A stretch of DNA of 64,000 nucleotides, from NCBI GenBank assembly GCA_963555995.3, contig OY821641.1:1536001-1600000 (forward strand). Direction: 5' to 3'. How positions within the stretch are numbered: the first letter of the stretch is position 1; each line of letters opens with the position of its first letter. Source of the DNA: Vicinamibacteria bacterium (GTDB taxonomy: Bacteria; Acidobacteriota; Vicinamibacteria; Marinacidobacterales; Marinacidobacteraceae). Below, in pieces: positions 17,902-48,974 of the stretch. The notes beneath the pieces are model-generated. The model was not told where the DNA came from. It saw only the letters and a program-made list of their open reading frames with translations, and made no database searches. The translations under genes were made by a program, and so were the position numbers.

Positions 17902-18086
17902 TAACAGCCGGTGGTGAAACCCACGTGAGCGCCGAGAGTGGCGAGGCGCCCGACTGACAAGGCGCGTGAGGGAGGAATACCGGGTGTATTCCGACCGAAA
18001 CGCAACGCAGAGCGGCTCGGAGAGGCGCGGTTCAGGCGGGATGCATCGCCGCTCGAACGCCGCGAGGGTTTTGCCACAGGCTGTTA
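17902..18086 (+). mobile_element. 181-bp TA-flanked palindromic MITE-like element, copy 1
   Basis: TA-ACAGCCGGTGG...CCACAGGCTGT-TA; same length and core as 44124-44308 (inverted) and 48790-48974; right end contains the bamD TAA stop. Confidence 0.85.
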
Positions 18087-18890
18087 AGTGCGGGCGAGAA
18101 TCTCCCGAATCCGTTCGCGGGCCGCTTCCGTGAAGGGGCTCCCGGAGTGCTCTTCCACGATCTTCTGGTAGTGGACCAGCGCCTCCTGTTCGCGGCCGCA
18201 CTCGGTGAGCGCCCGGCCCAGCCGGTGGCGGACCTCGGCGAGGCGGTCGAATTCGGGGTAGTTCGTCAGGATCTCCTCGAGCCGGGGAATGGCGCCCCGG
18301 CACCAATTCCGGTGGTCCTGGTAGAACTCCGCCTTCAGCAGCACGGAGGTGGCGAGGTCGTTCCGGCAGTCCACGAGGTGGCCCCGCGCCTCTTCCGCAT
18401 AGCGGGAGTTGGGGTAGAGCTCGAGCAGCTTCTCGAACTCGGTCGCCGCCAGTTCGGTGTCTTCCTGATCCCGGTCGGCGCTGCGGCGCCGCTTGAAGTG
18501 CCCGAACGCGATCTGGAACTGCGCGTAGTCCGCTCGCGGATGGTTCGGGAAAAAGGTGAGGTAGTCCCGGTACTCGGTGGCCGCCAACAGCGCGTTCTGG
18601 GCGCCGCGCTGGTTGTTGTAGGTGTCTGCGATCCCGAGACGGGCATCCCCGGCGAACTGGCTGCGCGGGTAGCTGTCGAGCAACTGGCGAAACCAGGTGC
18701 GGGCTGTCTCCCAATCGCGGTCCTCGAGGCTCTGCTGCCCGAGCGCCAGCAGCCGCCGGTCGGCCTGCGCTCCGGTCGGAACCTCCGCCAGCGGCCCGGA
18801 ACTGCACGCGAGAGCCGCCAGGACGACGGCTCCCGCCAGGGCGGGGGTCAGGGAGGTCCGGCGGACGGAACCGGCGGGGTCAGGAACCAT
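18084..18890 (-). CDS. bamD: Outer membrane protein assembly factor BamD
   Basis: Lipobox LAC; TPR-like YPRSQFA, FPNHPRADYAQFQIA, DRDQEDT, YPNSRYA. Confidence 0.9.
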   Translation of the reverse strand: MVPDPAGSVRRTSLTPALAGAVVLAALACSSGPLAEVPTGAQADRRLLALGQQSLEDRDWETARTWFRQLLDSYPRSQFAGDARLGIADTYNNQRGAQNALLAATEYRDYLTFFPNHPRADYAQFQIAFGHFKRRRSADRDQEDTELAATEFEKLLELYPNSRYAEEARGHLVDCRNDLATSVLLKAEFYQDHRNWCRGAIPRLEEILTNYPEFDRLAEVRHRLGRALTECGREQEALVHYQKIVEEHSGSPFTEAARERIREILART

Positions 18891-18925
18891 GCAACACAGT
18901 GGAAGGGCCGCAGCCGACGAAATGC

Positions 18926-18945
18926 TAGCAACCTGTGGACGAAGT
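18926..18945. repeat. Solo terminal fragment of the 181-bp element
   Basis: TAGCAACCTGTGGACGAAGT versus copy-3 end TAGCAGCCTGTGGATGAAGT. Confidence 0.6.
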
Positions 18946-19589
18946 CACGCCGCGAGCATCTCCCGAACCGCCGCGGCGGGATCGGCCGCCCCGAACACCG
19001 CCGATCCCGCCACCAGCACGTCGGCTCCCGCGTCGCGGGCCGCTGCCACCCGGGAGGCGTTGATTCCGCCGTCCACCACGATTTCGAGGGATGGGTTGCG
19101 TCGTTCCGCGAGGCTCCGGACCTGGCGGACGCGGTCCATGCTGCCTTCGATGAAGCGCTGCCCACCCCACCCCGGGTTGACGGACATGACGATCACGTAG
19201 TCCACGGCCGCCAGCGCCTCCTCGAGCGATGCCAGCGGGGAGAGCGGGTTCAGGGCCAGTCCGGGCCGGACGTCGAGGGAGCGGAGGTCGGAAACCGTCT
19301 TGTGGAGATGGGGCACGGCCTCCGGATGCACCGCGATCGCATCCGCGCCCGCTTCCGCGTAGGCCGCGATGTGTTCCGGGGCGTTCTCGATCATCAGGTG
19401 GGCGTCGAGCGGCAGGTCCGTGCAGCGGCGGACCGCCGCCACCACCATCGGCCCGAAGGTCAGGTTGGGGACGTAGTGCCCATCCATGACGTCGAGGTGC
19501 AACCCGTGCGCCCCGGCCTCTTCCACCGTCCGGATCTCTTCCGCCAGCCGCGTGAAGTCGGCGGAGAGCAGCGAGGGAGTGAGCCGCAT
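18945..19589 (-). CDS. rpe: Ribulose-phosphate 3-epimerase
   Basis: PSLLSADF, HLDVMDGHYVPNLTFG, DAHLMI, MSVNPGWGGQ, VDGGIN. Confidence 0.97.
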   Translation of the reverse strand: MRLTPSLLSADFTRLAEEIRTVEEAGAHGLHLDVMDGHYVPNLTFGPMVVAAVRRCTDLPLDAHLMIENAPEHIAAYAEAGADAIAVHPEAVPHLHKTVSDLRSLDVRPGLALNPLSPLASLEEALAAVDYVIVMSVNPGWGGQRFIEGSMDRVRQVRSLAERRNPSLEIVVDGGINASRVAAARDAGADVLVAGSAVFGAADPAAAVREMLAA

Positions 19590-19602
19590 CCGATGCGTGA
19601 AT

Positions 19603-20367
19603 TTACCGGCTCAGGGTGAGCACGATCCGGTCGGTACGGCTTACCTTGGCGCCCGCCGCGGGCACCTGGTCCACGACGATGCCCGCCGGAACCCCCCGGT
19701 AGGGGACGCTCCGGACATCGCGCACGCGGACGGCGCTCCGGCTCAGGTCATCGGCGATCTCCCCGTAGCGGCGGCCGATGAAATCCGGCATGACGAAGGA
19801 CTCGGGCTCCGATCCGGCGGAGAGGAGCACCGAGACCGACGTGTCGGGAACCGTCTCGCTGTAGGCGACCGGGGACTGGGCGATGACCCGGCCGGCGAGA
19901 TAGGTGTCGCTCTCCACCTCGGCCACGCGGCCCACGGCGAGTTCGGCGGCTTCGAGCTGCCGCCGGGCTTCGGTGAGGGTACTGCCCTCGAGCCGCGGAA
20001 CGACTCGTCGGGTGGGCCCGAGGCTCCGGAACACCTGGACGGAACGCCCGCGTTTGAAGAACGATCCCGGAGGGGGTTCCTGGAAGACGATGCGGCCTTC
20101 CGGAACGTGGTCATCGAAACGGGCCTGGCCCTCCGCGAGCCGCAGCCCCACGCTGCCGAGCACGGCTTCGGCGGCCGCCACTTCGAGGCCGGTGAGATCC
20201 GGGACGGTGGGGTCCGCGGCGGAGGAGGCAACCAGGAAGGTCGCCGCGGCGGCGAAGGCGAAGGTGGCGCCGAGCAGCGACCCGATCAGGAGGTAGTAGA
20301 GACCGCGCGACAGGCGTGAGGTGGAGGGTTTCCCGCCGCGCGCCCAGCGGATCCGGAGACTGCCCAA
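19603..20367 (-). CDS. Membrane-anchored PASTA-domain protein (three PASTA repeats, no kinase)
   Basis: One TM helix, then three VPDLTG / VPRLEG / MPDFIG ... Q.P..G repeats. Confidence 0.85.
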   Translation of the reverse strand: MGSLRIRWARGGKPSTSRLSRGLYYLLIGSLLGATFAFAAAATFLVASSAADPTVPDLTGLEVAAAEAVLGSVGLRLAEGQARFDDHVPEGRIVFQEPPPGSFFKRGRSVQVFRSLGPTRRVVPRLEGSTLTEARRQLEAAELAVGRVAEVESDTYLAGRVIAQSPVAYSETVPDTSVSVLLSAGSEPESFVMPDFIGRRYGEIADDLSRSAVRVRDVRSVPYRGVPAGIVVDQVPAAGAKVSRTDRIVLTLSR

Positions 20368-20457
20368 GGTGTCGGTACCTGCCGGAAGTGTAGTGTCGCC
20401 GGGGGTTCCGCGAACGGACCGCGCGCTGGCTCGGGCGGCCGCCCGGTTCGGACTCCC

Positions 20458-21879
20458 TCAGCCGTCCGTGCGCTGCACGAGCGCCGCGAAATACCCATCG
20501 GTTCCGTGCGCTTCGGGGGCGATCCGGAGTGCGCCGGTGTCGTCCACGAGGGGGGCCAGGGCTTCGGGCAGGCGGTCCGCGAGGGAGAGCTGCCGGAGGC
20601 CGGGTCTTCCGGAGAGCAGGCCGCGGACCGCCTCGGTCGTCTCCTCCGGCTCGAGCGAGCAGGCCGAGTAGAGCAGCATGCCGCCGGCGGCGAGAAGGTC
20701 CGCGGCCGCCCGGGCGATGCGGCCGGCGGTCTCCGCGAGCTCCCGAATGCGCGCGGGAGAAGCGGTCCACTTGATGTCGGGATTCCGCGCCAGGGTTCCG
20801 AGGCCGCTACAGGGGACGTCCAGGAGGATCCGGTCGAACGTTGCCGCCGCGAAGGGAGGACGGGCGGCGTCGGCGGCGAGCCGCAGCACGTTCCCGGCCG
20901 CGAGGCGGCGGACCGTCGCGTCCAGCAGGTTCACCCGGCGCGGCCGGAGGTCGGCGGCGATCAGTGGCCGCGGTTCGATCCGCTCGGCGAGGATGGCGGC
21001 TTTCCCGCCGGGAGCGGCGCAGGCATCGAGACACCGGCGCGCCCCGTCCACGGGAAGCAGCCAGGCCATGAGCTGCGACCCCGCGTCCTGCAGGTGAATC
21101 GCGCCCTCCCGGTACAGCGACGCATCCTGGGGGTTTCCGCTGACGACCCGGAGACAGCGGGGAGCGATCGGGAAACGCTCGGTCTCCACGCCCTCCTGCG
21201 CGAGCCGTTTCCTGACTTCCTCGAGGGCCAGCCGCCGGCCCACGCGCAGGAAGGCCGCCGGGGAGCGGTTGCCGGCCGTGAGCCTCCGTTTGGCGCCTTC
21301 GGGTCCGAGTTGCCCCAGACAGCGGTCCACCATCCAGTCCGGATAGGACAGCCCGGCGCGCAGATAGAGGTCCCGGTCGCCGCCGGGGCGGGGCCACGGG
21401 TGGTCGGCCCTGAGGTAGGCGCGGAGCACGGCGTTGACCAGACCGGCCGCCCCGGGCCGGGCGGAAGCGGCGGCGAGGGAGACGGACTCGTGGACCGCGG
21501 CGCTGGCCGGCACCCGGTCCAGGTAGCGAAGCTGGTAGAGGCCGAGCCGGAGCGCGATCCGCACCGGGAGGTCGAGTTTGCCGACCGGCCGGTGCGAGTA
21601 GCTGTCGAGGGCGTAGTCGAGGGAGCGCCTCCAGCGCAGCACCCCGAACACGAGTTCTCTGGCGAGCGCCCGGTCGCGATCGTTCGGCGGCTGCCCCCCA
21701 GCGTCCTCCAGGCGGGCGATCAGCGCGTCGGGACGGGGTGGATGGGGCCGCTCCCGGGTGGGTTCCAGCCGCAGGAGAACCGCGAAGGCGGCCCGCCGGG
21801 CGGGGGAGGCCAGGCGGGAGGCCGGGGCGGGTCCCCCTCGTGCGCGCCGGCCCGTCTTCTTTCGGGGTGCTCCGGGCAT
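20458..21879 (-). CDS. rsmB: 16S rRNA m5C967 methyltransferase
   Basis: NusB-like N-terminal domain, QDAGSQ, DACAAPGGK, DVPCSGLG, YSACS. Confidence 0.93.
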   Translation of the reverse strand: MPGAPRKKTGRRARGGPAPASRLASPARRAAFAVLLRLEPTRERPHPPRPDALIARLEDAGGQPPNDRDRALARELVFGVLRWRRSLDYALDSYSHRPVGKLDLPVRIALRLGLYQLRYLDRVPASAAVHESVSLAAASARPGAAGLVNAVLRAYLRADHPWPRPGGDRDLYLRAGLSYPDWMVDRCLGQLGPEGAKRRLTAGNRSPAAFLRVGRRLALEEVRKRLAQEGVETERFPIAPRCLRVVSGNPQDASLYREGAIHLQDAGSQLMAWLLPVDGARRCLDACAAPGGKAAILAERIEPRPLIAADLRPRRVNLLDATVRRLAAGNVLRLAADAARPPFAAATFDRILLDVPCSGLGTLARNPDIKWTASPARIRELAETAGRIARAAADLLAAGGMLLYSACSLEPEETTEAVRGLLSGRPGLRQLSLADRLPEALAPLVDDTGALRIAPEAHGTDGYFAALVQRTDG

Positions 21880-21880
21880 T

Positions 21881-22774
21881 TCAGTGGCAGGCGGCGATGA
21901 CTGCCGAGAGCGCCTGCGGATCGTCGGTGAGGATGCCGTCCACTCCCAGCGCGAGCAGGCGCTGCATGTCTTCGGCCCGGTTCACGGTCCAGACGAACAC
22001 CGGAAGGCCGGCCCGGCGCGCGGAGCGCAGCAGCCGGGGGGTCACCACCCGGACGGGGCCGCTGGTTTCGCTCACGAGAAGCGCATCGAACGGGGGGGCG
22101 TAGAGGCCGGCCAGCTGCCCGAGGGACATGGCGAGGAAGACCACGACCTCTCCGAAGGAGCCTCCGGTGGCAACGGCGGGACAGGCGCCGCGGAAGCGCT
22201 CCAGGGACTCGCCCCCGAAAGCGGCCACCAGGGTCCGGTCCTCTCTCCCCGCTTCCCGGATCGCCCGGCAGAGCGGCTCCGCGGTGTCCAGGGTCTTCAT
22301 CTCGACGACGAAGGGAACATCCGGATGGGCGGTCTGGACTTCCTCGAAGGTCGGGATGGACAGGCGTTCCGCGCGATAGGGAAAACTTCCGTCGGGCGCC
22401 CGGAAACGGTGGCCGGCGTTCAGGGAGCGCAGTTCCTCGAGGCGCAGTTCCCCGACCGCGCCGCTCCCGTCGGTGGTGCGGTCCACCGTGCTGTCGTGGA
22501 TCACGACCAGCGCGCCGTCGGCGGTCAGTCGGACGTCCATTTCGAGGACGTCCGCCCCCGCCCGGACAGCGGCCCCGAACGCCGCCAGCGTGGCCTCGGG
22601 CGCCAGCATGCCACCTCCCCGGTGAGCGACGTTCCGGACCGGCGCGGTGAAGAAGTCATGCACCGGTCTCGGAGGGCGCGTGCTCGCCACCAGAACCAGC
22701 ACCCCGTAGGCGGCGGCCAGAATTCCCAGGGTTCCGACCAGGAAGAACGCGAGGCGTCGGAGCCGCGGGTGCAT
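21881..22774 (-). CDS. Glycerophosphodiester phosphodiesterase, N-terminally anchored
   Basis: AHRGG..PEATLAAF, EMDVRLTADG..VIHD.TVDRTT, WTVN, GILTDDP. Confidence 0.9.
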   Translation of the reverse strand: MHPRLRRLAFFLVGTLGILAAAYGVLVLVASTRPPRPVHDFFTAPVRNVAHRGGGMLAPEATLAAFGAAVRAGADVLEMDVRLTADGALVVIHDSTVDRTTDGSGAVGELRLEELRSLNAGHRFRAPDGSFPYRAERLSIPTFEEVQTAHPDVPFVVEMKTLDTAEPLCRAIREAGREDRTLVAAFGGESLERFRGACPAVATGGSFGEVVVFLAMSLGQLAGLYAPPFDALLVSETSGPVRVVTPRLLRSARRAGLPVFVWTVNRAEDMQRLLALGVDGILTDDPQALSAVIAACH

Positions 22775-22776
22775 CG

Positions 22777-23787
22777 CTATCCGGATTCCGTCAGCCGGAC
22801 CGCCTCGGCGGCGCTCGCGAAACGGCCGGCGGGAGGGACGGCGTTCCCCTGCAGGAAGGGGGCGATGGGGAGCCGGCGGCGTCCCGCGGCCTGGACCTCG
22901 AGGGGCCAGAGCGCGGTGCCGCCCCCGCAGGCCACGACGAGGCGGGGCGCGCGCCGGCTGCCGGCGATCCGGAACGACCCCGGCGGCCGGCCCGTTTCCG
23001 GTGGACCGTCGTGGGCGGCGGCGCGGTGAATCCGGAGCGGGGCGGCGGCCCCGGACGTCCCGTCGCCGAGCGCCGTGAAGGCCACCGGAGCGGGAGAGAA
23101 GGCGCGCACCCGGCTCGCCAACGCCGGAGCCTCCAGTTCCCAGTCGAGGGCGGCGTCGGCCTTGCCGACCCGGGGGGCGAACGTGGCTGCATCGTCGTCC
23201 TGGGGGCGCGGAGTGATCCGTCGGGCCGCCAGCCCGGACAGGGTTTCGATCAGGAGTTCGGCGCCCAGGGGAGCCAGCCGGGCCAGGAGTTCACCCGCGG
23301 ATTCGTCATCGCCGATGTCCGTTTCCCGCTGGAGCAGGATCGGCCCGGTGTCGAGTCCGGTGTCCATGAGCATGGTCGTTACCCCGGTGCGGCGATAGCC
23401 GCGGGCCACCGCCCAGATCGCCGGGGCGGCGCCGCGGAGTTCGGGAAGCAGCGAGGCGTGGACGTTGACGGCCCCCAGCCGCGGCGCCGCCAGCAGGCGG
23501 GCGGAGAGGATCTGGCCGTAGTCGGCGACGACAAGAACATCGGGCTCGAGGTCCGCCACCGGTTCCCAGGCGCTCCGGCGCCGGATCCGTTCCGGTTGCC
23601 GGACCGGGATCCCGAACTCCTGCGCCCGGCGCTTGATCCGGCTGAGGCGGGGGCGGCGGCCTCGGCCCGCGGGCCGGTCCGGCTGGGTGAGCACCGCCAG
23701 TACCTGGTGACGGGCGTGCAGCGCGCCGAGCACCGGAACCGCGAAGGCCGAGGTCCCCAGGAAGACCACGCGGAGGCGCTCCACCAC
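22777..23787 (-). CDS. fmt: Methionyl-tRNA formyltransferase
   Basis: FLGTSAFA, TQPDRPAGRG, NVHASLLPELRGAAP, LDTGPIL. Confidence 0.95.
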   Translation of the reverse strand: MVERLRVVFLGTSAFAVPVLGALHARHQVLAVLTQPDRPAGRGRRPRLSRIKRRAQEFGIPVRQPERIRRRSAWEPVADLEPDVLVVADYGQILSARLLAAPRLGAVNVHASLLPELRGAAPAIWAVARGYRRTGVTTMLMDTGLDTGPILLQRETDIGDDESAGELLARLAPLGAELLIETLSGLAARRITPRPQDDDAATFAPRVGKADAALDWELEAPALASRVRAFSPAPVAFTALGDGTSGAAAPLRIHRAAAHDGPPETGRPPGSFRIAGSRRAPRLVVACGGGTALWPLEVQAAGRRRLPIAPFLQGNAVPPAGRFASAAEAVRLTESG

Positions 23788-23823
23788 CGTTCCTCCGCCA
23801 GCGCCGCGCCGGATCGCCGGGCG

Positions 23824-24336
23824 CTACCAGTCGCCGCGGCGCATGCGGCGGCGCAGCTTGCGAACGATGAGGTCCCGCTTGAGGAGTCCGAGCCGGTCCA
23901 GGAAGAGGCGGCCGTTGAGGTGGTCCACCTCGTGGGCGAACGCCCGGGCCAGCAGTCCTTCCCCCTCCATTTCGTAGGACGAACCGTCGAGACGTTGCCC
24001 GCGGACGCGGACCCACCGCGGCCGCCGGGTCACCCCCGAATACCCCGGCACGGAGAGGCATCCCTCCTCTTCGGACTGGCTCCCCTCCGATTCGAGGATC
24101 TCCGGATTGGCCATCACGATCAGCTCTCCGTCCTGCTCGCCGACCGTGATGTCAATCACCATCAGGCGGACTCCCACCCCGATCTGGGGCGCGGCAAGGC
24201 CGACTCCGGGGGCGGCGTACATGGTCGCCACCATGTCGTCCACCAGTTCCCGCCAGTTCCGGTCGAAGTCCTCGATGGGTTCGGAGGGAGTCGTGAGGGT
24301 GGAAGCCCCGTAGCGCAGGATCGGACGGACTGGCAA
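23824..24336 (-). CDS. def: Peptide deformylase
   Basis: GVGLAAPQIG, EGCLS, HEVDHLNG. Confidence 0.97.
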   Translation of the reverse strand: MPVRPILRYGASTLTTPSEPIEDFDRNWRELVDDMVATMYAAPGVGLAAPQIGVGVRLMVIDITVGEQDGELIVMANPEILESEGSQSEEEGCLSVPGYSGVTRRPRWVRVRGQRLDGSSYEMEGEGLLARAFAHEVDHLNGRLFLDRLGLLKRDLIVRKLRRRMRRGDW

Positions 24337-24408
24337 AACGGCTCGCGATTGTAGCCGTGGAACACCGGCGGATCCCCGAAAGTAGAATCGGCCCCGGAGG
24401 GGTCAGGA

Positions 24409-25446
24409 ATGAGGACGAAGAGGACAAGGACCGGGGCCGGAGTCCTGCTGTTCGCCGGTGTGGCGCTCGCGGCCGCGATCGGCTGGACGGCGGCGACGCC
24501 CGATGTCGCCGAAGAGATGATGGATCGGGCGCGGCACTTCCTGATGTCGCTCGACGCCGATCAGCGAGCCCAGGCGACGTTCGCGTTCGATGACGAGGAG
24601 CGGCTCAACTGGCACTTCATTCCGCGGGACCGGGAGGGCGTGCCGTACGGGGATTTCAGCCCACCCCAGCGCCGGCTCGCCGACCGCCTGCTCGGCACCG
24701 CGCTGAGCCACGACGGGATCAGCAAGGCGCTCGGCATCATGTACCTCGAACAGATCCTCTACGAGCGCGAAGGGCGCGACATCCGCGATTCCGACCGCTA
24801 CCACTTCACGGTCTTCGACGAGCCGTCGGAGTCGGGTCCCTGGGGCTGGCGCGTCGAGGGGCATCACCTGTCGCTCAACGTCACCCTCAGGGGAGGCGAG
24901 GTGGTCGCGGCGCCGGCGTTCATGGGCAGCAATCCGGCGGTCGTGGACGAAGGCCGGCACACCGGTCTCGAGGTGCTCGCCGCGGAACAGACGGTTGCGA
25001 GGGAACTGCTCGGACTCTTCGCGGGCGAGGCGCGCGAGCAGGTCATCTTTGATGCCGAGGCGCCGCCCGACATCCTGACCGGCACGGATCGGATCGCCGA
25101 TCCCGGAGACCCGCTGGGGCTCGCGATCGGAGGCATGACGGACGAGCAGGGCGAGAAGGTCGTCGAGCTGATCCAGGTCTACCTGGGCCGGATGCGGCTC
25201 GATCTCGCGAAGGCGGAGTTCGAGCGGATCACCGCGGCCGGCCTGCGCGACATCCACTTCGCGTGGGCCGGGAGCGCCGCGCCCGGCGAGCCGCACTACT
25301 ACCGGATCCACGGCCCGACCTTCCTCATCGAGTACGACAACACCCAGAACGGCGCGAACCACATCCACTCGGTGTGGCGCGACCTGACCGGCGACTTCGG
25401 CCGGGACCTCCTCGCCGAGCACTACGAGGCCGCCCACTCCCACTAG
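24409..25446 (+). CDS. DUF3500-like exported protein
   Basis: Signal peptide; [48 protein letters not shown]; SD GGAGG and TAGAAT upstream. Confidence 0.8.
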
Positions 25447-25473
25447 ACACGGTTCAGGGCGCTTCCCCCCCAG

Positions 25474-25702
25474 GATGACGCCCACGGCCTGGAACGCCGG
25501 TCTCCAGACCGGCACGCGCGGTGCTCCGCATCGCGCAGGGCGCGACTTCCACACGCAGGGTGCTTCTATCCTGCTCGTTCACCTGAACGAACTGGAGGTC
25601 GCCGTACGGCGTCCCGTGAAGGCGGACAGCGTCACGTCGGCCGCGGGCCTTCGGCCCGCTGTGCCGGTCTGGAGACCGGCGTTCCAAGCCGTGGGCGCCA
25701 TC
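25474..25702. repeat. Pair of inverted REP-like repeats (REPIN/BIME-like)
   Basis: 25474-25515 and 25661-25702 are reverse complements (40/42); core GGAACGCCGGTCTCCAGACCGGC is itself a hairpin; internal GCGGGCC-TTC-GGCCCGC hairpin. Confidence 0.8.
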
Positions 25703-25880
25703 TCCGCTCTGGAGCTCCACGCCGTGACAGGAGCCACCCGTTCCGGGTGGGATTGCGGCGTGCGCGGCGCTCCGCGCCGCGCACGGCGTGACCCCTGTAC
25801 ACCCTCACGGCGCGGACGACTTCGAGCAGCGACCGGAGCTCCCCTCGCCGACCCCCTGTTCCTATACTCCGGGCGACGCG

Positions 25881-28121: not shown

Positions 28122-28281
28122 GGCGCCCCTGCTGAGCCTCACGGCGCGCCGGCTGGGACCGCCGGTCTGGAGGCCTCCCGGGAGAACTGGTCGGCGCTCC
28201 AGGCCGTTGCGACACCTGGGTTGTTGAACTTCGGGCCGAGGCGGGAGTCATCCTTTCCGGGTGGGGTCGGGACGTGCGCGG

Positions 28282-28328
28282 TGCGGAGCACCGCGCGTGC
28301 CGGTCTGGAGACCGGCGTTCCAAGCCGT
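28282..28328. repeat. REP-like repeat, inverted partner of 25484-25530
   Basis: 47-bp reverse complement with 46/47 matches; degenerate copies at about 28156 and 28190. Confidence 0.8.
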
Positions 28329-28391
28329 ACGCGCCTTCCCCGCGGTCAGCGCCGCGCGCCCCGCTACCTGCGCGCGCGCCGGTAAACCGCG

Positions 28392-31316: not shown

Positions 31317-31477
31317 GTGAGGTCTCGGGAGGCGCGAAAATATAGAGGCTTGGACGCGCAAACGTCAGAAGCGGGTCGCCGAGCCCGGAAGTTCGAGCCT
31401 GAAACGGGGGATGCAGGGGCGAGGAGCGCCGGGGAGTTTCGGCATGCGGCCGGCGTGCGGAAAGTAGGCTTCGCCCC

Positions 31478-33648: not shown

Positions 33649-35075
<1,427 letters not shown>

Positions 35076-35107: not shown

Positions 35108-35641
35108 ATGACGATCGCCAATCAGCTCACCGTGCTCCGGCTGCTGCTGGCCCCGGTGGTGGTCATCTGCATCCTCTACGGACGCTTCGGACTCGCCCTG
35201 GGAGCGCTCGTGCTGGCCGGCCTCACCGACGTGATGGACGGGGTGCTCGCCCGCCGCCTCGGAGAGAACAGCCACCTCGGCGCGCTCCTCGACCCGCTCG
35301 CCGACAAGGTGCTGATCGTGTCGGCGGTGGTGACCCTGGCCGCGCCCATCGAGGCGGTCTCGGTGCGGATCCCGGCCTGGGTCGCGATCATGGTGCTGTC
35401 CCGGGACGCCACGATCCTGTTCGTGGCCGGGGCCTACAACCTGGCGGTCGAGCGCCGCAACTTCATCCCCAGCCGGCTCGGCAAGGCCGCGACCGTGATC
35501 AACGTGGTGGGCATCTTCTGGTTCCTGGCCGCGAACCTGCTCGGGCTCGACAGCGTCGTCACCCCGCTGCTGCTGGCGGCGATGGTGACCCTCACGGTGA
35601 TCACCTCGCTCCAATACCTCTGGCGGGTGCGCTTGCTCTAG
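35108..35641 (+). CDS. Second CDP-alcohol phosphatidyltransferase (PgsA-like or eukaryote-type cardiolipin synthase)
   Basis: TIANQLTVLR, TDVMDGVLARRLGENSHLGALLDPLADK, SRD, GKAAT. Confidence 0.85.
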   Translation: MTIANQLTVLRLLLAPVVVICILYGRFGLALGALVLAGLTDVMDGVLARRLGENSHLGALLDPLADKVLIVSAVVTLAAPIEAVSVRIPAWVAIMVLSRDATILFVAGAYNLAVERRNFIPSRLGKAATVINVVGIFWFLAANLLGLDSVVTPLLLAAMVTLTVITSLQYLWRVRLL

Positions 35642-35660
35642 CAGGTTTCCCGGCTTTTCC

Positions 35661-38521: not shown

Positions 38522-38574
38522 GGTTGCGCGACGAAGTATGGTCGAGATGCGGGGGCCGGGGGGCCGGGTCGCGC

Positions 38575-41319: not shown

Positions 41320-41363
41320 GCGGCGATTGTGCCTTGGAGTCGCCCCCTCCGGGAAGGGGGGAG

Positions 41364-41392
41364 CGGAGCGCCGGCCCCCAGCGGGCGCTCCG
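41364..41392. repeat. REP-like hairpin between divergent mutS and tsaB
   Basis: CGGAGCGCC-GGCCCCCAGCG-GGCGCTCCG; same GGAGCGCCGG head as the other REP-like units. Confidence 0.45.
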
Positions 41393-41434
41393 AATAGGAT
41401 TTCCCGCGCATTGCGAGAACGGGATTCCGGGTCC

Positions 41435-42148
41435 GTGGCGGCCGCACCGATCTCCGGGCCGGTGCTGGCCCTCGATACGACGGGCACGCTCGGCAGCGTC
41501 GCGCTGGGGTCCGCCGGCCCGGACGGCGCCGTGACCGGTGACGTCGTCGAGGCCTTCGAACCCTCGAACCTCCACGCGCGGAACCTCCTGCCCGCGATCC
41601 GCGGCCTCCTGGCGCGGGCGGGGCTCGAAACCTCGGACCTCGCCCTGGTGGTGGCGACCCGGGGACCGGGTTCGTTCACCGGACTGCGGATCGGCCTCGC
41701 CACCGCGCAGGGGTTCGCGCTGGCCGCCGGAGTCCGGGCCGCCGGGGTCTCGAGCCTGGATGCGGCCGCCCTGGCGGATGCGGCCGCGAGCCGTTCCGCG
41801 CTCCGCCGCCTGGTGGTTGTGGACGCGCTACGGGGGGAACTCTTCGCCGCCCTCTACGAGGGGGCCGGTCCCGACGCCCTCGTCCGGGGGCCCTGCCGCC
41901 TGCTCCCGGAAGACGCCGCGCGCCGGGCCGCGGAGCACGGGGCCGCCCGGATCTGCGGACCGGCGGTGCGGCGCTACCGCGGCGCGATCGGCCGAGGGCG
42001 CCCGGACATCGAGATCGTGGAGGACCGGCGGGCGCTCGCGCCGGCCGCGCTCCGTCTGGGGCTTCAGGCGGCGCGCCGCGGGGAAACCACCCTGGAGCCG
42101 CTCTACCTCCGGGAACCGGACATCCACGGCCGTTCCGTTACGCTATAG
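41435..42148 (+). CDS. tsaB: tRNA threonylcarbamoyladenosine biosynthesis protein TsaB
   Basis: VLALDTTG, GPGSFTGLRIG, DALRGE, EPLYLR; start uncertain (41411, 41435 or 41462). Confidence 0.9.
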   Translation: MAAAPISGPVLALDTTGTLGSVALGSAGPDGAVTGDVVEAFEPSNLHARNLLPAIRGLLARAGLETSDLALVVATRGPGSFTGLRIGLATAQGFALAAGVRAAGVSSLDAAALADAAASRSALRRLVVVDALRGELFAALYEGAGPDALVRGPCRLLPEDAARRAAEHGAARICGPAVRRYRGAIGRGRPDIEIVEDRRALAPAALRLGLQAARRGETTLEPLYLREPDIHGRSVTL

Positions 42149-42155
42149 CTGCTTG

Positions 42156-42304
42156 CAACCTGTGGAAAAAGTCACGCGGCCCTCATCGTTGCGTTTCGGG
42201 AATGCATCCCGGCCGGTCCTCCCGGCAGGGGTTTCTCCCTCGCGGGGCGCCCGCGCCGGGACAACCGGCGTTCCCGGCGCCCGCGTCGCTTTCTCCACGG
42301 GCGG
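42156..42304 (-). mobile_element. Degenerate, shortened relative of the 181-bp element
   Basis: CAACCTGTGGAAAAAGTCACGCGG...CCGCGTCGCTTTCTCCACGGGCGG ends; contains CGTTGCGTTTCGG and a segment matching the copy-3 left arm. Confidence 0.6.
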
Positions 42305-42367
42305 CTCGGTGATGTTTGTCCGAGGCGGTTCCGGACCCGCGGTCCGGACGGCCTGGTGGAGGCCTTC

Positions 42368-42613
42368 ATGAAACACCAAGATGAGATCGAGACGGAACCC
42401 CGCGCATCGGCCGGGCCGGAGCCGGCAGCCCCGGCCGCGGCGGCGCCCGATCTTGAGGAATTGGTCCGGAAACACCGGGAACTCGACGAACAGCTCGAGG
42501 AACTCACCAGGTACGGCCACCTCTCTCCCCTCCAGCAGCACGAAGCCGCGGTCATGAAGAAGCGCAAACTGGCCCTCAAGGACCGGATCGCCGCGCTCGC
42601 GGCCTCGTCGTGA
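42368..42613 (+). CDS. DUF465/YdcH-family small coiled-coil protein
   Basis: HRELDEQL...KKRKLALKDRI; SD GGAGG. Confidence 0.8.
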   Translation: MKHQDEIETEPRASAGPEPAAPAAAAPDLEELVRKHRELDEQLEELTRYGHLSPLQQHEAAVMKKRKLALKDRIAALAASS

Positions 42614-42672
42614 CGGTCTGGAACGACGGACTGGAACGACCGACCTGACGCGGCACCCGGCCGCACGGGCGC

Positions 42673-43314
42673 ATGAGACTGCCGATCGCCCCGGAGGGCA
42701 GGGTGTTCGTGGCGGTCCCGCTCCTCGCGGCCATCCTCGCGCTCGCCGCGGCCGGCGCCGGCGGCGAGGCCTTCGCCTGGGCCGGCGGGGCGCTGTTCGC
42801 CGGCGCCGGGTTCTGCGCGTTTTTCTTCCGGGATCCGGAGCGGCGTCCGCCCCGTGATGCGGCGGTACTCACCGCTCCCGCGGACGGCCGCGTCACCGAA
42901 GCCGGACCCGCGGACGAAGGCGAGCCGGGGACCCAGCGCGTGAGCATTTTCCTCTCGATCTTCGACGTCCACATCAACCGGGCGCCGGCCGCGGGGGAGG
43001 TGCGGGCCGTGCGCTATCGTCAGGGCGCGTTCCGGGCGGCCTTCCGGAGAGACGCCGCCGAGCGGAACGAGCGGAACGAGTTGGAGATGACCACCGAGCG
43101 GGGCACGATCCGGATACGCCAGATCGCCGGAGTCGTCGCCCGGCGCATCGTGTGCCGGGTCCGGGCCGGAGACCGGCTCGCGCTGGGCGAGCGCTTCGGA
43201 CTGATCCGTTTCGGCTCGAGGACCGATCTGCTCCTGCCGCCGGGGGTCACCCTTTCGGTTCGTTCCGGAGACCGGGTGCGCGGCGGGCTGAGCGTCATCG
43301 GGAAGTGGGAATGA
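42673..43314 (+). CDS. psd: Phosphatidylserine decarboxylase proenzyme
   Basis: FFFRDPER, APADG, IFLSIFDVHINR, QIAG, RFGSR self-cleavage site. Confidence 0.93.
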   Translation: MRLPIAPEGRVFVAVPLLAAILALAAAGAGGEAFAWAGGALFAGAGFCAFFFRDPERRPPRDAAVLTAPADGRVTEAGPADEGEPGTQRVSIFLSIFDVHINRAPAAGEVRAVRYRQGAFRAAFRRDAAERNERNELEMTTERGTIRIRQIAGVVARRIVCRVRAGDRLALGERFGLIRFGSRTDLLLPPGVTLSVRSGDRVRGGLSVIGKWE

Positions 43315-44126
43315 AACGCCAGCGACTCCGGACGCGCCGGGGAGTGTTCCTGCTTCCGGCCGTGTTCACCGTCGGCAACATTTTCCTGGGCTTTTTCTCC
43401 ATCGTGCAGAGCTTCCGCGGGGAGTTCGGCAGCGCCGGACTCATCATCGGGTTCGCCATCCTCGCGGACGTGGTGGACGGCCGGGTGGCCCGGTTCGCCG
43501 GCGCCGCCAGCGAGTTCGGCCGTGAACTGGATTCCCTCGCGGACGTGGTTTCCTTCGGAGTGGCGCCGGCGGTGCTGGCGTACGCGTGGGTTCTCTATCG
43601 CTGGCCGCAGACCGGATGGCTGGTGGCCGCACTGTTCACGATCTGCGCCGCCGTCCGTCTCGCCCGGTTCAACGTAGGGCGGTTGAGCACCGATCCCCGC
43701 TACTACACGGGGATGTCGTCGCCGGCCGCGGCGGCGGTGGTCGGGGCGGTGACCTACTGGCATCCGGCGCCGCCCGGGAACTCGCTGGCCGCGGCGGCCT
43801 GCCTCTTTGGAACCCTCGGGCTCGCCCTGCTGATGAACAGTCCGGTGCGCTACCCGAGCTTCAAGAACCAGACCGGACGAAAGCCCCAGTCCCACCGGAT
43901 GCTGGTCGTGCTGGCGGTGTTCATCGTGGCCACGATCGCGGAACCGGTGGCGATGTTCCTGGTTCTCGCCTTCGGATACGCGGCCTCGCCGCTGATCCGC
44001 GGGGTTCGCGGACTGGGCGGCCGGCTGGTCCGCTCGTCGTCGAGCGGTTCACCGAAGCCGGACCGGGTGGCGTTGGGGCGCGCCGGCCCTCGGGGAAGCG
44101 GGGACCGCCCGGCGGACCCTCCTTAA
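43311..44126 (+). CDS. pssA: CDP-diacylglycerol--serine O-phosphatidyltransferase
   Basis: DVVDGRVAR...SEFGRELDSLADVVSFGVAPA, RLARFN; ATGA overlap with psd. Confidence 0.93.
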   Translation: MKRQRLRTRRGVFLLPAVFTVGNIFLGFFSIVQSFRGEFGSAGLIIGFAILADVVDGRVARFAGAASEFGRELDSLADVVSFGVAPAVLAYAWVLYRWPQTGWLVAALFTICAAVRLARFNVGRLSTDPRYYTGMSSPAAAAVVGAVTYWHPAPPGNSLAAAACLFGTLGLALLMNSPVRYPSFKNQTGRKPQSHRMLVVLAVFIVATIAEPVAMFLVLAFGYAASPLIRGVRGLGGRLVRSSSSGSPKPDRVALGRAGPRGSGDRPADPP

Positions 44127-44308
44127 CAGCCTGTGGCAAAACCCTCGCGGCGTTCGACGGGCGATGCATCCCGGCTGAACCGCGCCTCTGCGAGGCGCTC
44201 TGCGTTGCGTTTCGGTCGGAATACACCCGGTATTCCTCCCTCACGCGCCTTGTCAGCCGGGCGCCTCGCCCGTCTCGGCGCTCACGTGGGTTTCACCACA
44301 GGCTGTTA
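44124..44308 (-). mobile_element. 181-bp TA-flanked palindromic element, copy 2 (inverted)
   Basis: TA-ACAGCCTGTGG...CCACAGGCTGT-TA; begins at the pssA TAA stop. Confidence 0.85.
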
Positions 44309-44350
44309 ACTGGCCGCAAGGACTCCGGCCCCCGCGGGAGCGGGCGCCGC

Positions 44351-44845
44351 TCACCGGGTCCAGGCGGTGAACTCGCGAATCTGCCACCGGGGGGGCGAAC
44401 CGGCCGCCGGCTCGGCCGCGACCCGTTCCAGACCGATCCGAAAGGACTCCACCACGTAGCGGTCGGTGCCGGTGGCCATGCTGGTCCACTCGGGAACGAA
44501 CAGGACGTAGCCGCCGTCCGCGGAGCGGCGGATGGAGGGCGGCCGCTCCTGGTAGCCGATCGGCGTGCGGTTCCGGAAGAACCGTTCCAGCCCGCGTCGC
44601 AGTTCATCCCCGGAAGCGCTGCGGCGGGTTTCCCCGGCGAGCGCCACGAGCGCCCAACCCGACGGATAGAGACCCTCGAGATGGCCGGCGTCGGACTCTT
44701 CGAACGCAAGCCGGAACCGCCCGAGAATCGCTTCGAGATCGTCCGGAGGCGGTGGGGCGGGAGCGCACATCGCGCACGCGACGATCGTCGCGGCAAGCAA
44801 CCGGACGATCCGGGGTGCGCCCCGTGTCCCGCGGTTGACGCTCAT
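44351..44845 (-). CDS. Exported hypothetical protein, possibly NTF2/SnoaL-like
   Basis: Signal peptide; LEAILGRFRLAFEESDAGHLEGLY...WQIREF pattern; ATGA-coupled to the sensor kinase. Confidence 0.6.
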   Translation of the reverse strand: MSVNRGTRGAPRIVRLLAATIVACAMCAPAPPPPDDLEAILGRFRLAFEESDAGHLEGLYPSGWALVALAGETRRSASGDELRRGLERFFRNRTPIGYQERPPSIRRSADGGYVLFVPEWTSMATGTDRYVVESFRIGLERVAAEPAAGSPPRWQIREFTAWTR

Positions 44846-47800
44846 CCCGCCTCCTTCTCGCGCGGGCCGTCCACCGGAAGCTCCACGACCAGGAGCAGGC
44901 CGGACCGGCGCTCGGCGCGGGCGCGGGCGCTGACTTGCCCCCCGTGGGCCTCGGTGAAGCGGCGGGCGTTCGCGAGCCCGAGCCCCGATCCCCGGGTCCT
45001 GGTGGAGAAGGCGGCGTCGAAGATCCGTTCGCGGAGTCCCTTCGGGACGCCGGGGCCGTTGTCCTCCACCTCGATGCGGATCCATCGGTCCCGGCGAACC
45101 GGGCGCACCCGCACCGAGACCTCCGCCTCCTCCGGCGGGATCTCGGGAAAGTCGAGGGTGGCCTCGAGCGCGTTCTGCAGGAGGTTCTCGACGATCCGCG
45201 CCACGATCTCGGGATCAACCCGCGCCGCCGGGGTCGGTGAGCCCTGGAAACGGACCCGCGGCCGCGCGTGGGGGCGCCGATACGGGCCGACGGTGTCCTC
45301 GACCAGCTTCGTCACGTCGGTTTCCCGGAGCCGAAGCGGGGCTCCGAGAGCGGAAAACTCCGAAGAGATGCGCCGGAGACGCTCCACCTGATCGAGGATT
45401 TCGGAGACGCCTTCATCCACCGCCGCCTGCGGGTCCCGGCCGCGGGGTTCCCTGAACACCCGCCGGATGTAGTCCGCCGCCAGTCCGATCGGGGCGAGGG
45501 CGTTCTTGACGTCGTGGGCGACGCGTCTTGCCAGATCGGCCGCCGCCTCCTCGCGCATCTGCCGGCGGACATCGGGAATCCGCCGCACCAGCCGTTCCAC
45601 GCTGGCCGCGAGCAGGCGCAGTTCGGTCAGCGTGCCGTGCACGGGCACCCGGGCCTGGAGATCGCCATCGGCAATCCGGCCGGTCGCGCGCGCCAGCCCC
45701 CGCACCGGGGCGGCCAGGCGCCGCGCGACCAGCGCGGGCAGCACGATCGCGAAGATCAGCGCCAGCGACCCGCTCCCGAGAATGAGGGTCCGCTGGATGG
45801 CCCGGACGCTCTCGAGGCGGGCGGCCTCGTCCGCCGGCAGCGGGACGGCGAGAAGCAGGGGGCCGTGCAGGCGGGCGGGGGTGTCGAGGTGGATCCAGAC
45901 GATCCGATACCGGAGCGGGCCGGCGTCCTGGATGCTCAGGAACGGATCGGGTGAGGCGGTGGGCAGGATCGCCGCGGGCGGAGGTCGTGGCGGGAGGAGT
46001 CCCGTCTGCGCCAGTTCGGGACGGCTGACCGCAACCAGTTCCCCGCCGTTGTAGAGCGCGGCATCGGTATCGAGCTGGTCGGCCGCCTGGGCGAGGCGCA
46101 GGGCGAGTTCCTCCCGCGGAATGAGCGGATCGAGGGCGGCGAGTTCCTGCGCCACGCGCCGCACCGAAAACGACCGGGAGACGGCTTCCCGGTCGCTGGC
46201 GGACTCGAGGAGGACGCCGAGGCGCTGCTGCGCGAAGACCGCGACGCCCAGCATCGCGATGAGGACGGCCGCGGCGAGCGCCTCCGTCAACTGCATCTGG
46301 AAACTCCGCCTCCGGAACCGGCCCTCCCGATGCGGGAAGACGAGGCGGGCGCGCGCGGCGACCGCGACCAGCAGTGCGATCAGGGCGGCCAGGAAGCCCC
46401 AGCCGAGCAGCGCGCCGGCGTGGTCGGCGAGTCCGGTCCGCCGCCAGGAGACGACGAAGGGCTCGCCATGTACCAGGACACCGAGCTCGACCCGCCGTTC
46501 GCCGCGTTCCGGGGGCAGGGAAGAGCGGCGGCTGAGCCGGAGGTCTCTGCCGCGAAACACGGCGGGGGCCGCGTCGCCGCGCAACAGGAAGTGATCCGCG
46601 ATCCCCGCGGCCCGGGGCAGGAAGGGAATCTCCGACGCCCGGTCGGCGACCCGGAGGGTCACGCTGGCCCCCGAAGGGAACTGGCGCTCGGTCTCCAGGA
46701 CGGCCTCGATGCCGGAGGCCGCCTCGCATTCGGGGATGGGACTCCAGCGAGGGGGGGAGGGAGCGGAGGACGGAGGATCGGGCCGCCGGGGCAGGCCCAC
46801 CCCGAAGCGGGAGCGCTCACCACCGGGTCCCCGAACCTCCAGCGCGCTCGCCACCGTCAACCGGGGCAGCCCGGTCGAGAGCCACAGCCGGTAGGCGCTG
46901 TCCGGACGAAGTTGCGCGAGGGAAGCGGCTTCGCCGTCGAGCGTGCGCGTCGCTTCCTCCAGCGCGTGGCAGACCGCGAAGCGGTGTCTCAGGGCCTGGA
47001 GCGGGGCTGCGTCCGCCGCGTAGCGCTGCCGGACGTTGTCCTCGTGCCACGCCATCGCCGGGTAGAGAAGGACCCCCGGGACGGCGAAGAGCAGGAAGGC
47101 CACGAGGAAGGAGAAGCCGGGCTCATGGGCGACGAGCGGTTGCCGGAGGTGCCTGAGGGACAGCCGTCCGCGGCGCCAGAAAACCACCGAGGCGCCGGCC
47201 AGCAAGGGAAGCCCGGCAAACAGGAAGGAACCGCCCGGCAGGAATGCGACCGAAACGGCAACGACCGCGGCGGCGGTCACCAGTACCGGAACTTCCAGCC
47301 GGAGGAGACTCTGGAGGAGGAGCAGGAGTCCGGCGAGGGCGAGAAGCAGGGCGGCCCAGCCGAGGACTTCCGGCCACCGGGTATGGAGCGTCCAGGTCGG
47401 GGTGAGCGGCGCGCCGCCCGAGAACCCGGCGCTGCGGACGAGGGCGGCGGCCAGGACCGCCGCTCCGCCGGCGCCGAGGCCGCGCAGCAGGGCATGGATC
47501 CCTCCCGGTGTCCTGCTGCCGGAGCCGGGGCGGAGCCGGATGGCGACGATACGCGCCGAAGCCAGCACGGCTGCCGCGGTGACGACCGCCATGAGCGGCG
47601 AGTCGCCCAGCACCGGCAGCAGGGGCGCGTCCGAGAGGAAAGCCGGAAGCGCGGCGCCGGGTCCCGACGGGAGGGTTCCGAGCAGCGCGGCGAAACCGAA
47701 GGTCAGCGTCCAGATCGCCCCCAGCGTACCGAGGTCTCCGGAGCGCCGGAGAGCGGGAAGAGCGGCCAGGATGCCGAGCAGGAGCGCCAGGGTCGCGTAG

Positions 47801-48786
47801 AGCGCGGCCTCGGCTTCGCGTTCCGCGCGGCGCGCGGCCGCCGGGGCCACGGCAGTGCTGGCGGCGCCGAGCAACTGACCGTCGTAGGCCCGGAGGGCGA
47901 AGTAGTAGCGCTGCGCATCCCCGGCGCCGTCCACGAAACGGTCGCCGCGGCGCTCGAAGAGCTGCGCCAGCGCCGCGAGGTCGGCGGCGCCATCCACGAA
48001 CTGCGTCTCGATCCCTCGTCCGGCGGCGAACTCGAGCGCCGAGAGCGGGGCGGCGCCCGAGGAGGGGGGGGACGCCTCCCGGACGGGCACCTCCACGGTG
48101 ACCACCCCGAGCAGGTTCCGGGTGCATTCGGCGGCGGCCAGGTAGCCGCGCCGACCCCCCTCGCTGTACACGAAGAGCGGAAACGCCGGATCGGGGCAGC
48201 GCTCTTCGCGGACTCCGTCGGGGAACACCCCGGAGAGGGCGGCTTCGAAGTCCGGGTTGCCTCCCGACCACGCCACCGGACGCAACTGCCGGTCGTAGAG
48301 GGTCGCGCCACCGTCGCCGATCCCGGTTCCAGGGAGCGCCCACTCGGAGAGCGCGCGGAAGGCGCGGGCCTCCGTGCCGCCCGCATCCGAGCCTTCCAGC
48401 GCGGCGGCCACCGGCGCCGTCCGCGCGACCAGGTAAGCGGCATCCCCCACCTCCCGGGTGAGGTCGGCGAGAAAGGCGTCCACCCGGTCCGCCGCCCGGG
48501 AAGCGGACTCCGGGCCCGCGGTGATCGTCCGGCTGAGCGGAAGGCGGCACGAAAGCGCCACCAGGGCGGCGGCAGCCAGGCTCAGGGCAATTCGCCGGCT
48601 GCCGGGAGGCAGGAGGTCACGCCGGACCAGGGCGAAGAGGAACAGCAGCGCGGTGGCTGCCGTCAGCGTGGTGTGGACGGCGCCCGGGAAGGCGGCGAAC
48701 CGGTTGGCGGCGTCGGCAAGGGCGGCCCCGAACGCCGCGAAGGCGCCAGCGACCAACAGGAGCGGCGGCAGACGATCGGTCTTCAT
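44842..48786 (-). CDS. Very large multi-TM HAMP sensor histidine kinase (NtrY-like kinase core)
   Basis: HAMP domain; H-box ARRVAHDVKNALAPI, N-box NLLQNALEA, DNGPG, GSGLGL; start ATG 48786. Confidence 0.88.
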   Translation of the reverse strand: MKTDRLPPLLLVAGAFAAFGAALADAANRFAAFPGAVHTTLTAATALLFLFALVRRDLLPPGSRRIALSLAAAALVALSCRLPLSRTITAGPESASRAADRVDAFLADLTREVGDAAYLVARTAPVAAALEGSDAGGTEARAFRALSEWALPGTGIGDGGATLYDRQLRPVAWSGGNPDFEAALSGVFPDGVREERCPDPAFPLFVYSEGGRRGYLAAAECTRNLLGVVTVEVPVREASPPSSGAAPLSALEFAAGRGIETQFVDGAADLAALAQLFERRGDRFVDGAGDAQRYYFALRAYDGQLLGAASTAVAPAAARRAEREAEAALYATLALLLGILAALPALRRSGDLGTLGAIWTLTFGFAALLGTLPSGPGAALPAFLSDAPLLPVLGDSPLMAVVTAAAVLASARIVAIRLRPGSGSRTPGGIHALLRGLGAGGAAVLAAALVRSAGFSGGAPLTPTWTLHTRWPEVLGWAALLLALAGLLLLLQSLLRLEVPVLVTAAAVVAVSVAFLPGGSFLFAGLPLLAGASVVFWRRGRLSLRHLRQPLVAHEPGFSFLVAFLLFAVPGVLLYPAMAWHEDNVRQRYAADAAPLQALRHRFAVCHALEEATRTLDGEAASLAQLRPDSAYRLWLSTGLPRLTVASALEVRGPGGERSRFGVGLPRRPDPPSSAPSPPRWSPIPECEAASGIEAVLETERQFPSGASVTLRVADRASEIPFLPRAAGIADHFLLRGDAAPAVFRGRDLRLSRRSSLPPERGERRVELGVLVHGEPFVVSWRRTGLADHAGALLGWGFLAALIALLVAVAARARLVFPHREGRFRRRSFQMQLTEALAAAVLIAMLGVAVFAQQRLGVLLESASDREAVSRSFSVRRVAQELAALDPLIPREELALRLAQAADQLDTDAALYNGGELVAVSRPELAQTGLLPPRPPPAAILPTASPDPFLSIQDAGPLRYRIVWIHLDTPARLHGPLLLAVPLPADEAARLESVRAIQRTLILGSGSLALIFAIVLPALVARRLAAPVRGLARATGRIADGDLQARVPVHGTLTELRLLAASVERLVRRIPDVRRQMREEAAADLARRVAHDVKNALAPIGLAADYIRRVFREPRGRDPQAAVDEGVSEILDQVERLRRISSEFSALGAPLRLRETDVTKLVEDTVGPYRRPHARPRVRFQGSPTPAARVDPEIVARIVENLLQNALEATLDFPEIPPEEAEVSVRVRPVRRDRWIRIEVEDNGPGVPKGLRERIFDAAFSTRTRGSGLGLANARRFTEAHGGQVSARARAERRSGLLLVVELPVDGPREKEAG

Positions 48787-48789
48787 GCC

Positions 48790-48974
48790 TAGCAGCCTGT
48801 GGATGAAGTGACGTGAGCACCGAGAACGCCGGGGCGCCCGGCTGACAAGGCGCGTGAGGGAGGAATACCGAATGTATTCCGACCGAAACGCAACGCAGAG
48901 CGCCTCGTAGAGGCGCGGTTCAGGCGGGATGCATCGGCGTTCGAATGCCGCGTTACTTTGTCCACAGGCTGCTA
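48790..48974 (+). mobile_element. 181-bp TA-flanked palindromic element, copy 3
   Basis: TA-GCAGCCTGTGG...CCACAGGCTGC-TA within a CTAG context; same length as copies 1 and 2. Confidence 0.85.

Follow-up and report, generated by a model that had tools for sequence, protein, structure and literature searches.

An ERIC-like folded MITE of Vicinamibacteria shares its terminal repeats and four-base targets with a resident IS1182/IS5-clan insertion sequence

ERIC elements of enterobacteria and vibrios are 127 bp long and alter transcript stability depending on their orientation, and the route of their mobilization was without experimental support as of 2007 (PMC2229807). How repeats of the ERIC type spread and why they fold have been open questions since 1990. 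Other short, gene-less bacterial elements, which belong to the MITEs (miniature transposable elements with inverted repeats), are moved in trans by a cognate insertion sequence (IS): RUP with IS630-Spn1, Nezha, and Correia/NEMIS carry terminal repeats matching those of an IS, duplicate their targets, are intergenic, and fold end to end (PMC2229807, PMC3184786, and PMC10969869). REPINs are non-autonomous hairpins that conserve length and pairing instead of arm sequence; they show compensatory changes and can be clustered in tandem or nested in one another (PMC3116915). The 64,000-nucleotide stretch of a Vicinamibacteria bacterium analyzed here (assembly GCA_963555995.3, contig OY821641.1, positions 1,536,001 to 1,600,000 of the forward strand; the window) contains three copies of a gene-less 179-bp mobile element, a MITE that combines an ERIC-like core with an identifiable transposase partner.

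The features of the three copies, in window coordinates, are:
17905..18083, plus strand: MITE copy 1, the 179-bp element proper, CAG...CTG, with ends fixed by the IS ends and the 4-bp repeats
17901..17904, plus strand: left target 4-mer of copy 1, CTAA
18084..18087, plus strand: right target 4-mer of copy 1, TTAA, the TTA of which is the TAA stop codon of a minus-strand open reading frame (ORF)
17905..17920, plus strand: left terminal inverted repeat of copy 1
18068..18083, minus strand: right terminal inverted repeat of copy 1
17958..18010, plus strand: conserved purine-rich core of copy 1, AAGGCG ... GGAG-hairpin-CGAC ... AACGCAG, common to several phyla and present in motif form in ERIC
18012..18028, plus strand: extra side hairpin of copy 1, which lengthens the element of this lineage by ~20 nt over the 161–166-nt cross-phylum form
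44127..44305, minus strand: MITE copy 2, 179 bp, flanks TTAA/TTAA
48793..48971, plus strand: MITE copy 3, 179 bp, second subfamily, flanks CTAG/CTAG

The MITE is very probably moved in trans by a cognate DDE transposase of the IS1182/IS5 clan, because it has the same terminal repeats and the same 4-bp targets as a resident IS and abuts IS copies on common sites. The MITE resembles RUP, Nezha, and Correia elements in all the traits listed above. It differs from them in having a partner transposase of the IS1182/IS5 clan, the 4-bp targets being YTAR or AATT, and in its interior, a cross-phylum module found under many different ends and not a deleted IS. The 3.8-Mb host genome (G000, contig G000:C1; 70% GC, assembly 93% complete) contains 81 full-length and 57 partial matches to an nhmmer profile built from 44 clean copies, and with 81 full-length copies the element is no chance occurrence. 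It is short, non-coding, and multi-copy, has terminal inverted repeats of ~16 bp, and is characterized as a MITE also by target duplication, by empty sites in relatives, and by an autonomous partner that matches it in ends and target. The prediction of an earlier note, made from the letters of the window, that the repeats are non-autonomous structured elements is thus supported, and the copies lie where it placed them, each 185 nt from TA to TA with 181 nt between the TAs. Exactly the same 185-nt length is found in 75 of the 81 full-length copies.

Genome-wide pairing of terminal motifs identifies three 1,515-bp ISs that carry the terminal repeats of the MITE and are identical inside (G000:C1 362858, flanks TTAA/TTAA; 2715918, TTAG/TTAG; 3789945, GTAA/GTAA). 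TTAG/TTAG and GTAA/GTAA are non-palindromic direct repeats; therefore, the duplication is 4 bp long and the element runs from CAG to CTG. The mobilizing enzyme, which the earlier note left unnamed, has a candidate in these three IS copies with shared ends and direct repeats. The ORF of the IS encodes a 475-residue protein with the domains DUF772 and DDE_Tnp_1, both above cut-off. Residues D149, D298, and E363 occur in the expected order and are invariant in 17 aligned homologues, and the transposase looks intact. Its best NCBIfam match is IS1182 at 146 of 270 bits, followed by IS5_4 at 83 of 140, with all matches below cut-off, and a 48%-identical plasmid relative with flanks CTAA/CTAA is annotated as IS5 family; therefore, the label IS1182/IS5 clan is used. 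The partner IS has the DUF772 and DDE domains, CAG...CTG ends, and 4-bp duplication of that clan. By contrast, IS1272, a member of the IS1182 family, is targeted to inverted repeats and makes no duplication (PMC5678879), a behavior absent from the partner IS. The group to which the transposase belongs is large and comprises 7,951 clusters or more.

In the main MITE subfamily, 44 of 45 copies agree with the left end of the resident IS at 14–16 of 16 bases. Agreement is mostly 12–13 of 16 bases in the second subfamily, which includes copy 3 and has a preference for CTAG (17 of 23 copies with Watson-Crick closure versus 9 of 39; p 1e-4); it may have been spread by a related transposase. In the related genome G001, 12 of the 14 IS copies with paired ends have perfect 4-bp repeats, three of which are non-palindromic, and at seven IS copies of G001 and G008, the IS and a MITE end meet at a common TTAA. 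Two IS copies in G001 (L352 and L354) have hybrid flanks in reciprocal arrangement, CTAA/TTAA and TTAA/CTAA; they may have arisen when copies recombined with each other. The local alignment score between the interiors of the MITE and the IS is 25, which is matched by 42 of 200 shuffles, and the MITE interior is not an IS remnant. The partner IS has left a classical MITE-type remnant with an internal deletion at G000:C1 3647890-3648237, and an older, diverged remnant is present at 2718408-2718954. An IS1634-family element (four copies, L001-L004, among them G000:C1 1698323-1700310), which is also flanked by CTAG, was rejected as the partner, as its ends differ. One of its copies abuts a 275-nt variant of the MITE on a common CTAG.

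Homologues of the IS in relatives duplicate TTAA (G001 and G008), CTAG (G025), or AATT (G018). The flanks of the IS in G018 are AATT/AATT in seven of seven copies. Of 19 MITE loci fetched from the same genome, 17 could be read at both ends: eight have AATT/AATT, six AATT on one side, one TATT/TATT, and two TAG-type flanks, so that AATT adjoins 14 of the 17. Exact-pattern MITE copies led by AATT number 13 in G018 and zero in the other 54 searched genomes of the order. Since both the IS and the MITE occupy AATT in G018, the target of the MITE follows the resident transposase. The switch was found in one genome and counts as one event; however, an enzyme that duplicates TA cannot yield the G018 pattern, and the case is a natural experiment that supports both the transposase partner and the 4-bp target duplication. 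The target switch ties the MITE to its transposase, which makes the function of the core testable with one protein and a 179-bp substrate.

Several observations weigh against this partnership and the features derived from it. The link between the MITE and the transposase, if strong, is circumstantial. A homologue with more than 50% identity occurs in only 3 of 15 same-genus genomes, whereas the MITE is present in 15 of 15 (and in 26 of the 31 genomes searched). The G000 query finds no close homologue in G013, G009, and G014, nearly closed assemblies that all carry the MITE; G013 (four contigs, 91% complete) has the most MITE candidates. The usual explanation, loss of the IS after a burst, presumably applies. 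A cognate IS was found neither in G000 for the second arm type nor, with two mismatches allowed, in four other genomes for the third. Perfect 4-bp repeats flank only 35 of 75 copies in G000. The closing pair is complementary in 85 of 98 copies of the genus at non-palindromic sites, which resembles TA plus 181 bp, whereas the IS itself has five perfect repeats and two hybrids at such sites. One empty site reads TCAG in five of five relatives and the filled site TCAA/TTAG, which does not result from plain 4-bp duplication. Furthermore, the excess of G·T pairs in the folded strand, described below, can arise from deamination of the exposed strand instead of selection.

Copies with perfect repeats are mostly those with a close sibling (mean nearest-neighbor distance 2.5 versus 10.8). 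In the remaining copies in G000, the two target bases adjoining the element stay complementary and the outer ones vary; variation is 20% at T1 and 26% at A185 versus 7% at A2 and 1% at T184. This is why a 181-bp element between TAs looks right in G000. Nevertheless, the element proper is best read as CAG...CTG, 179 bp with a 4-bp target duplication, and the first arm pair of the earlier note, A-T versus G-C, is part of that duplication and lies outside the element. Exact-pattern copies in the genus with outer C...A comprise 27 CTAA/TTAA, 30 CTAG/CTAA, and 3 CTAA/CTAA, and those with outer T...G comprise 13 TTAA/TTAG, 15 TTAG/CTAG, and 10 TTAG/TTAG, the classes CTAG/TTAA and TTAA/CTAG being left out. 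On the folding strand, 3 of 60 copies retain an A·C closing pair, compared with 10 of 38 for G·T (Fisher p 0.004, with kin not independent). The near-AATT copies of G018 mostly show the same pattern with the inner bases kept, which is thus not an effect of TA. Three processes could each produce the asymmetry: repair of one arm from the other once the element has inserted, drift at the outer positions, or insertion that brings the closing bases along. Joints in contigs of run X6 skip four of the copies. Of 15 loci of relatives compared with the site of copy 1, 12 can be aligned to its left and right, and the element is absent from that position in all of them. One other site is located in a mobile region and has no usable orthologue. 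The relatives differ by 10–20% at the sites, and three of the nine displayed sites are clean alignments of equal length; because of this divergence, the empty sites fit models of 179+4, 181+2, and 183+0 alike.

The fold of copy 1 is a rod with an RNA folding energy of -104.3 kcal/mol (z -7.7) on the strand with the purine-rich core, compared with -90.7 on the other strand; the DNA of copy 3 folds with -62.6 versus -51.8. The purine-core strand folds better in all 75 copies of 185 nt, and the consensus stem of these copies has G·T in 351 cells and A·C in 27, in agreement with the previously noted wobble pairs that work on one strand only. At mostly Watson-Crick pairs, deviation types seen once are 14 G·T versus 11 A·C, and those seen in several copies are 21 versus 5. 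Since the once-seen types are symmetric and the multi-copy types are biased, inserted copies decay without regard to strand, and the bias is acquired as copies multiply. This suggests folding of one strand while the element is being copied. The bias is expected from selection for the fold and equally from deamination of the exposed strand, and under either, the purine-core strand would be single-stranded in propagation.

Pattern scans for the core yielded at least 118 loci in genomes, at least 122 in metagenomes, and 32 in viral contigs, none of the last being a core-plus-arm element. The matches listed include 137 core-plus-arm elements, 59 from genomes and 78 from metagenomes, and are distributed over Acidobacteriota, Actinomycetota, Thermodesulfobacteriota/Deltaproteobacteria, Elusimicrobiota, Pseudomonadota, and Nitrospirales. 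A crude identity rule divides the 133 fully flanked elements among them into 31 arm clusters, and relatives within the order contain further arm types. The distance of the core from the terminal TA is 56–57 nt in 80 of the 137 listed elements and 54–58 nt in 103; it is 56–57 nt in the window copies, and the core sits 53 nt from the element end under ~30 arm types. Two window copies were aligned with 25 of the cluster representatives; the other six were omitted, mostly because they have internal inserts or their ends are nested. Of the 44 predicted pairs, 33 vary at both partners in this alignment, and the covariation score is 0.562, compared with 0.182 for shuffled and no more than 0.125 for slid controls; this alignment also supplied the structure, and the first ten bases of the core were fixed by the search pattern. 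Every paired arm change that the earlier note listed is present in the alignment of the copies, and conservation of the fold rather than the arm sequence extends to the 27 arm representatives. The covariance model matches 12 of 61 genomes drawn from the phylum. Within G000, divergence is 3.9% in the core, 5–6% in the terminal repeats, and 12–13% in the arms. Two other genomes of the phylum contain ~190-bp core variants with an extra stem inside the core (L637 and L638).

Eight loci fetched with an ERIC primer contain a 127-bp element in two distinct sequences. They are presumably ERIC, given the primer and the length stated in the source cited at the outset. Similarity at the level of a covariance model, which had been set beforehand as a test, is absent: the model scores 6.7 bits (E 0.49) and skips the core. 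By contrast, the layout of the core does recur as a motif. A descriptor of it matches eight of eight ERIC loci, 71 of 81 G000 copies, and 120 of the 137 cross-collection elements among the matches listed, but 0 of 20,000 shuffles and no G000 site outside the copies. Because the gaps of the descriptor were set after viewing both ERIC and MITE sequences, the comparison shows a shared plan and falls short of proving common descent. ERIC and the MITE have the motif order AAGGCG, GGAG, TAC-loop-GTA hairpin, YGAC, and AAC in common, and the rod of ERIC/IRU/RU-1 is also more stable on the purine-core strand (-52.3 versus -38.2 kcal/mol for ERIC). However, ERIC is 127 bp long instead of 179 bp and has unrelated arms, a longer inner stem, a shorter outer arm, and TA ends, and its TA duplication has no counterpart in the MITE, which duplicates 4 bp, including AATT in G018. 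The element behaves like an ERIC-type rod and is not ERIC by length, arms, or duplication.

In the proposed mechanism, the transposase would bind the terminal repeats, make a 4-bp staggered cut in the target, and insert the element. The purine-core strand would be single-stranded in propagation and fold into the rod, and the core could then be read by a host factor, the favored guess being a signal for priming or for the second strand in a route of the copy-out type. The arms would turn over by capture of the ends of resident ISs and copying of one arm onto the other, and the same arm-to-arm copying would make the target base adjoining the repeat usually complementary after insertion. Movement in trans by the transposase combined with action of an ancient folded core on one DNA strand in copying is judged probable from the sequence comparisons. 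Taken by itself, the role of the core as a single-strand signal in propagation is evenly poised. More tentatively, and with the balance somewhat against it, the core may be a portable amplification module, a single-stranded DNA signal for a conserved host factor, for instance a machine for priming or second-strand synthesis. The module would enable a gene-less element to capture the ends of any resident DDE IS and out-replicate it, with ERIC as one branch of the superfamily. If so, MITEs of this kind would be an old lineage that swaps transposase partners instead of decayed ISs, and a pair of the G018 type would be the first assayable system for an ERIC-type core.

The fixed distance between the core and the end across unrelated arms could instead reflect a dedicated enzyme, RAYT-like or another HUH or nicking enzyme, that recognizes the folded core, cuts at that distance, and moves all arm types, leaving only some copies to the DDE transposase. 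Such an enzyme would also account for the abundance of the MITE in genomes where no close transposase was found and for the usually complementary closing pair, in which the MITE is unlike the IS. It is an unlikely explanation, because the target switches to AATT exactly where that of the IS switches, and the terminal repeats diverge only by the 5–6% given above and match the IS. Moreover, 0 of 105 ORFs flanking core elements at 80 metagenome loci match a transposase, HUH protein, or nuclease at E 1e-6, and no neighboring gene recurs among them. The MITE resembles REPINs in the traits described in the opening paragraph; however, no REP tetranucleotide or adjacent RAYT was found (a genome-wide RAYT search was not made), the ends are DDE-type inverted repeats with target duplication, and the center is conserved, not the ends. 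The fold could also be a by-product, in which template switching perfects the palindrome, strand-biased deamination produces the G·T pairs, and the core is kept by descent or for a host RNA role such as the mRNA decay described for ERIC. The complementarity acquired even by target-derived bases, the overlap of 20 of the 81 copies with stop codons, and the orientation-dependent effect of ERIC on transcripts (PMC2229807) point in this direction. By contrast, transcription, with gene direction called by a simple GC3 rule, reads the weaker-folding strand in 17 of the 20 stop-codon overlaps and likewise by 33 versus 19 in co-directional contexts; because the other strand is read more often, a role of the fold in mRNA is argued against. 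Insertion sites are not common to different species, so that there is no site-specific host role, and repair of a palindrome cannot explain why conservation is highest in the core, which is mostly unpaired. The by-product explanation is considered improbable.

The 181-bp element duplicating TA by an IS630-type or unnamed enzyme, as proposed in the earlier note, draws on the 85 of 98 closing pairs already mentioned and on the TA-centered ends of most arm types in other phyla among the matches listed. Its link with IS630 could be seen in the name MITEEc1_IS630 for ERIC. This ISfinder name is printed in PMC11602168. However, IS630 was rejected as the partner, as G000 contains no PF13358 match, and the IS with identical ends makes 4-bp repeats. 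Furthermore, the AATT and TATT/TATT flanks in G018 have no duplicated TA at the ends, and given these, the version with TA and 181 bp is largely refuted for this arm type and has only a very small probability, although it may hold for other arm types. The partnership with the IS1182/IS5-clan transposase is preferred. New here are the cognate IS, the revised ends of the element, the switch of target to AATT, and the asymmetry of the closing pair. A literature search, with most subscription journals outside its range, returned no description of the family or of a core common to MITEs with different ends; a supplementary MITE catalogue that belongs to PMC11602168 may contain such sequences.

The MITE is a heavy user of rare sites in G000, where its ends adjoin 51 of 150 TTAA and 77 of 715 CTAG sites. 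No bias between leading and lagging strands was found (40 versus 41 copies, with origin and terminus placed by cumulative GC skew). Some copies form tandem arrays with a period of 183 nt, and four copies are nested within the core of another copy. The resulting four 368-bp pairs (G000:C1 278026-278394, 861648-862013, 2494277-2494624, and 2890299-2890666) have the same insertion point in the core and are possibly one composite that moved as a unit. The 275-nt variant has ten copies, including G000:C1 1471435-1471709, and carries a 90-nt structured insert in the right arm. A second MITE family with other ends and a closely related core has six CTAG-flanked copies of ~170 bp (G000:C1 62851-63022, 1514166, 2037385, 2141616, 2495597, and 2757874). 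At G000:C1 2852764-2852987, a 224-bp element has the same ends as the MITE and an unrelated interior without the core. Rfam at gathering score detects only a tRNA in the whole window and no match to the element, and at E up to 1 it gives one chance match in 16 core loci. Plasmid sequences contain no match to the element, and phages two short matches at chance level. Some of the sequencing runs that contain the region are labelled as sponge or marine metagenomes, and no RNA run is among those listed.

Further features in the window, next to the copies or derived from the element, are:
18084-18890, minus strand: ORF of a YfiO/TPR lipoprotein that ends at copy 1
43152-44126: ORF of a CDP-alcohol phosphatidyltransferase, the TAA stop codon of which (44124-44126) is at the edge of copy 2
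42174..42305, minus strand: decayed partial derivative of the element, nhmmer 24.5 bits
49002..49043, plus strand: lone right-end fragment of a further copy, directly after copy 3

In G008, the orthologue of the copy 1 site has the end of an independent copy (L090) within a few bases of it, which suggests repeated use of the same gene end. Short decayed pieces that resemble the end and the inner arm of the element are located at window positions 18923-18960 and 48034-48060. Another palindromic repeat family is present at 25473-25782 and 28209-28343, on both sides of a heavy-metal P-type ATPase gene.

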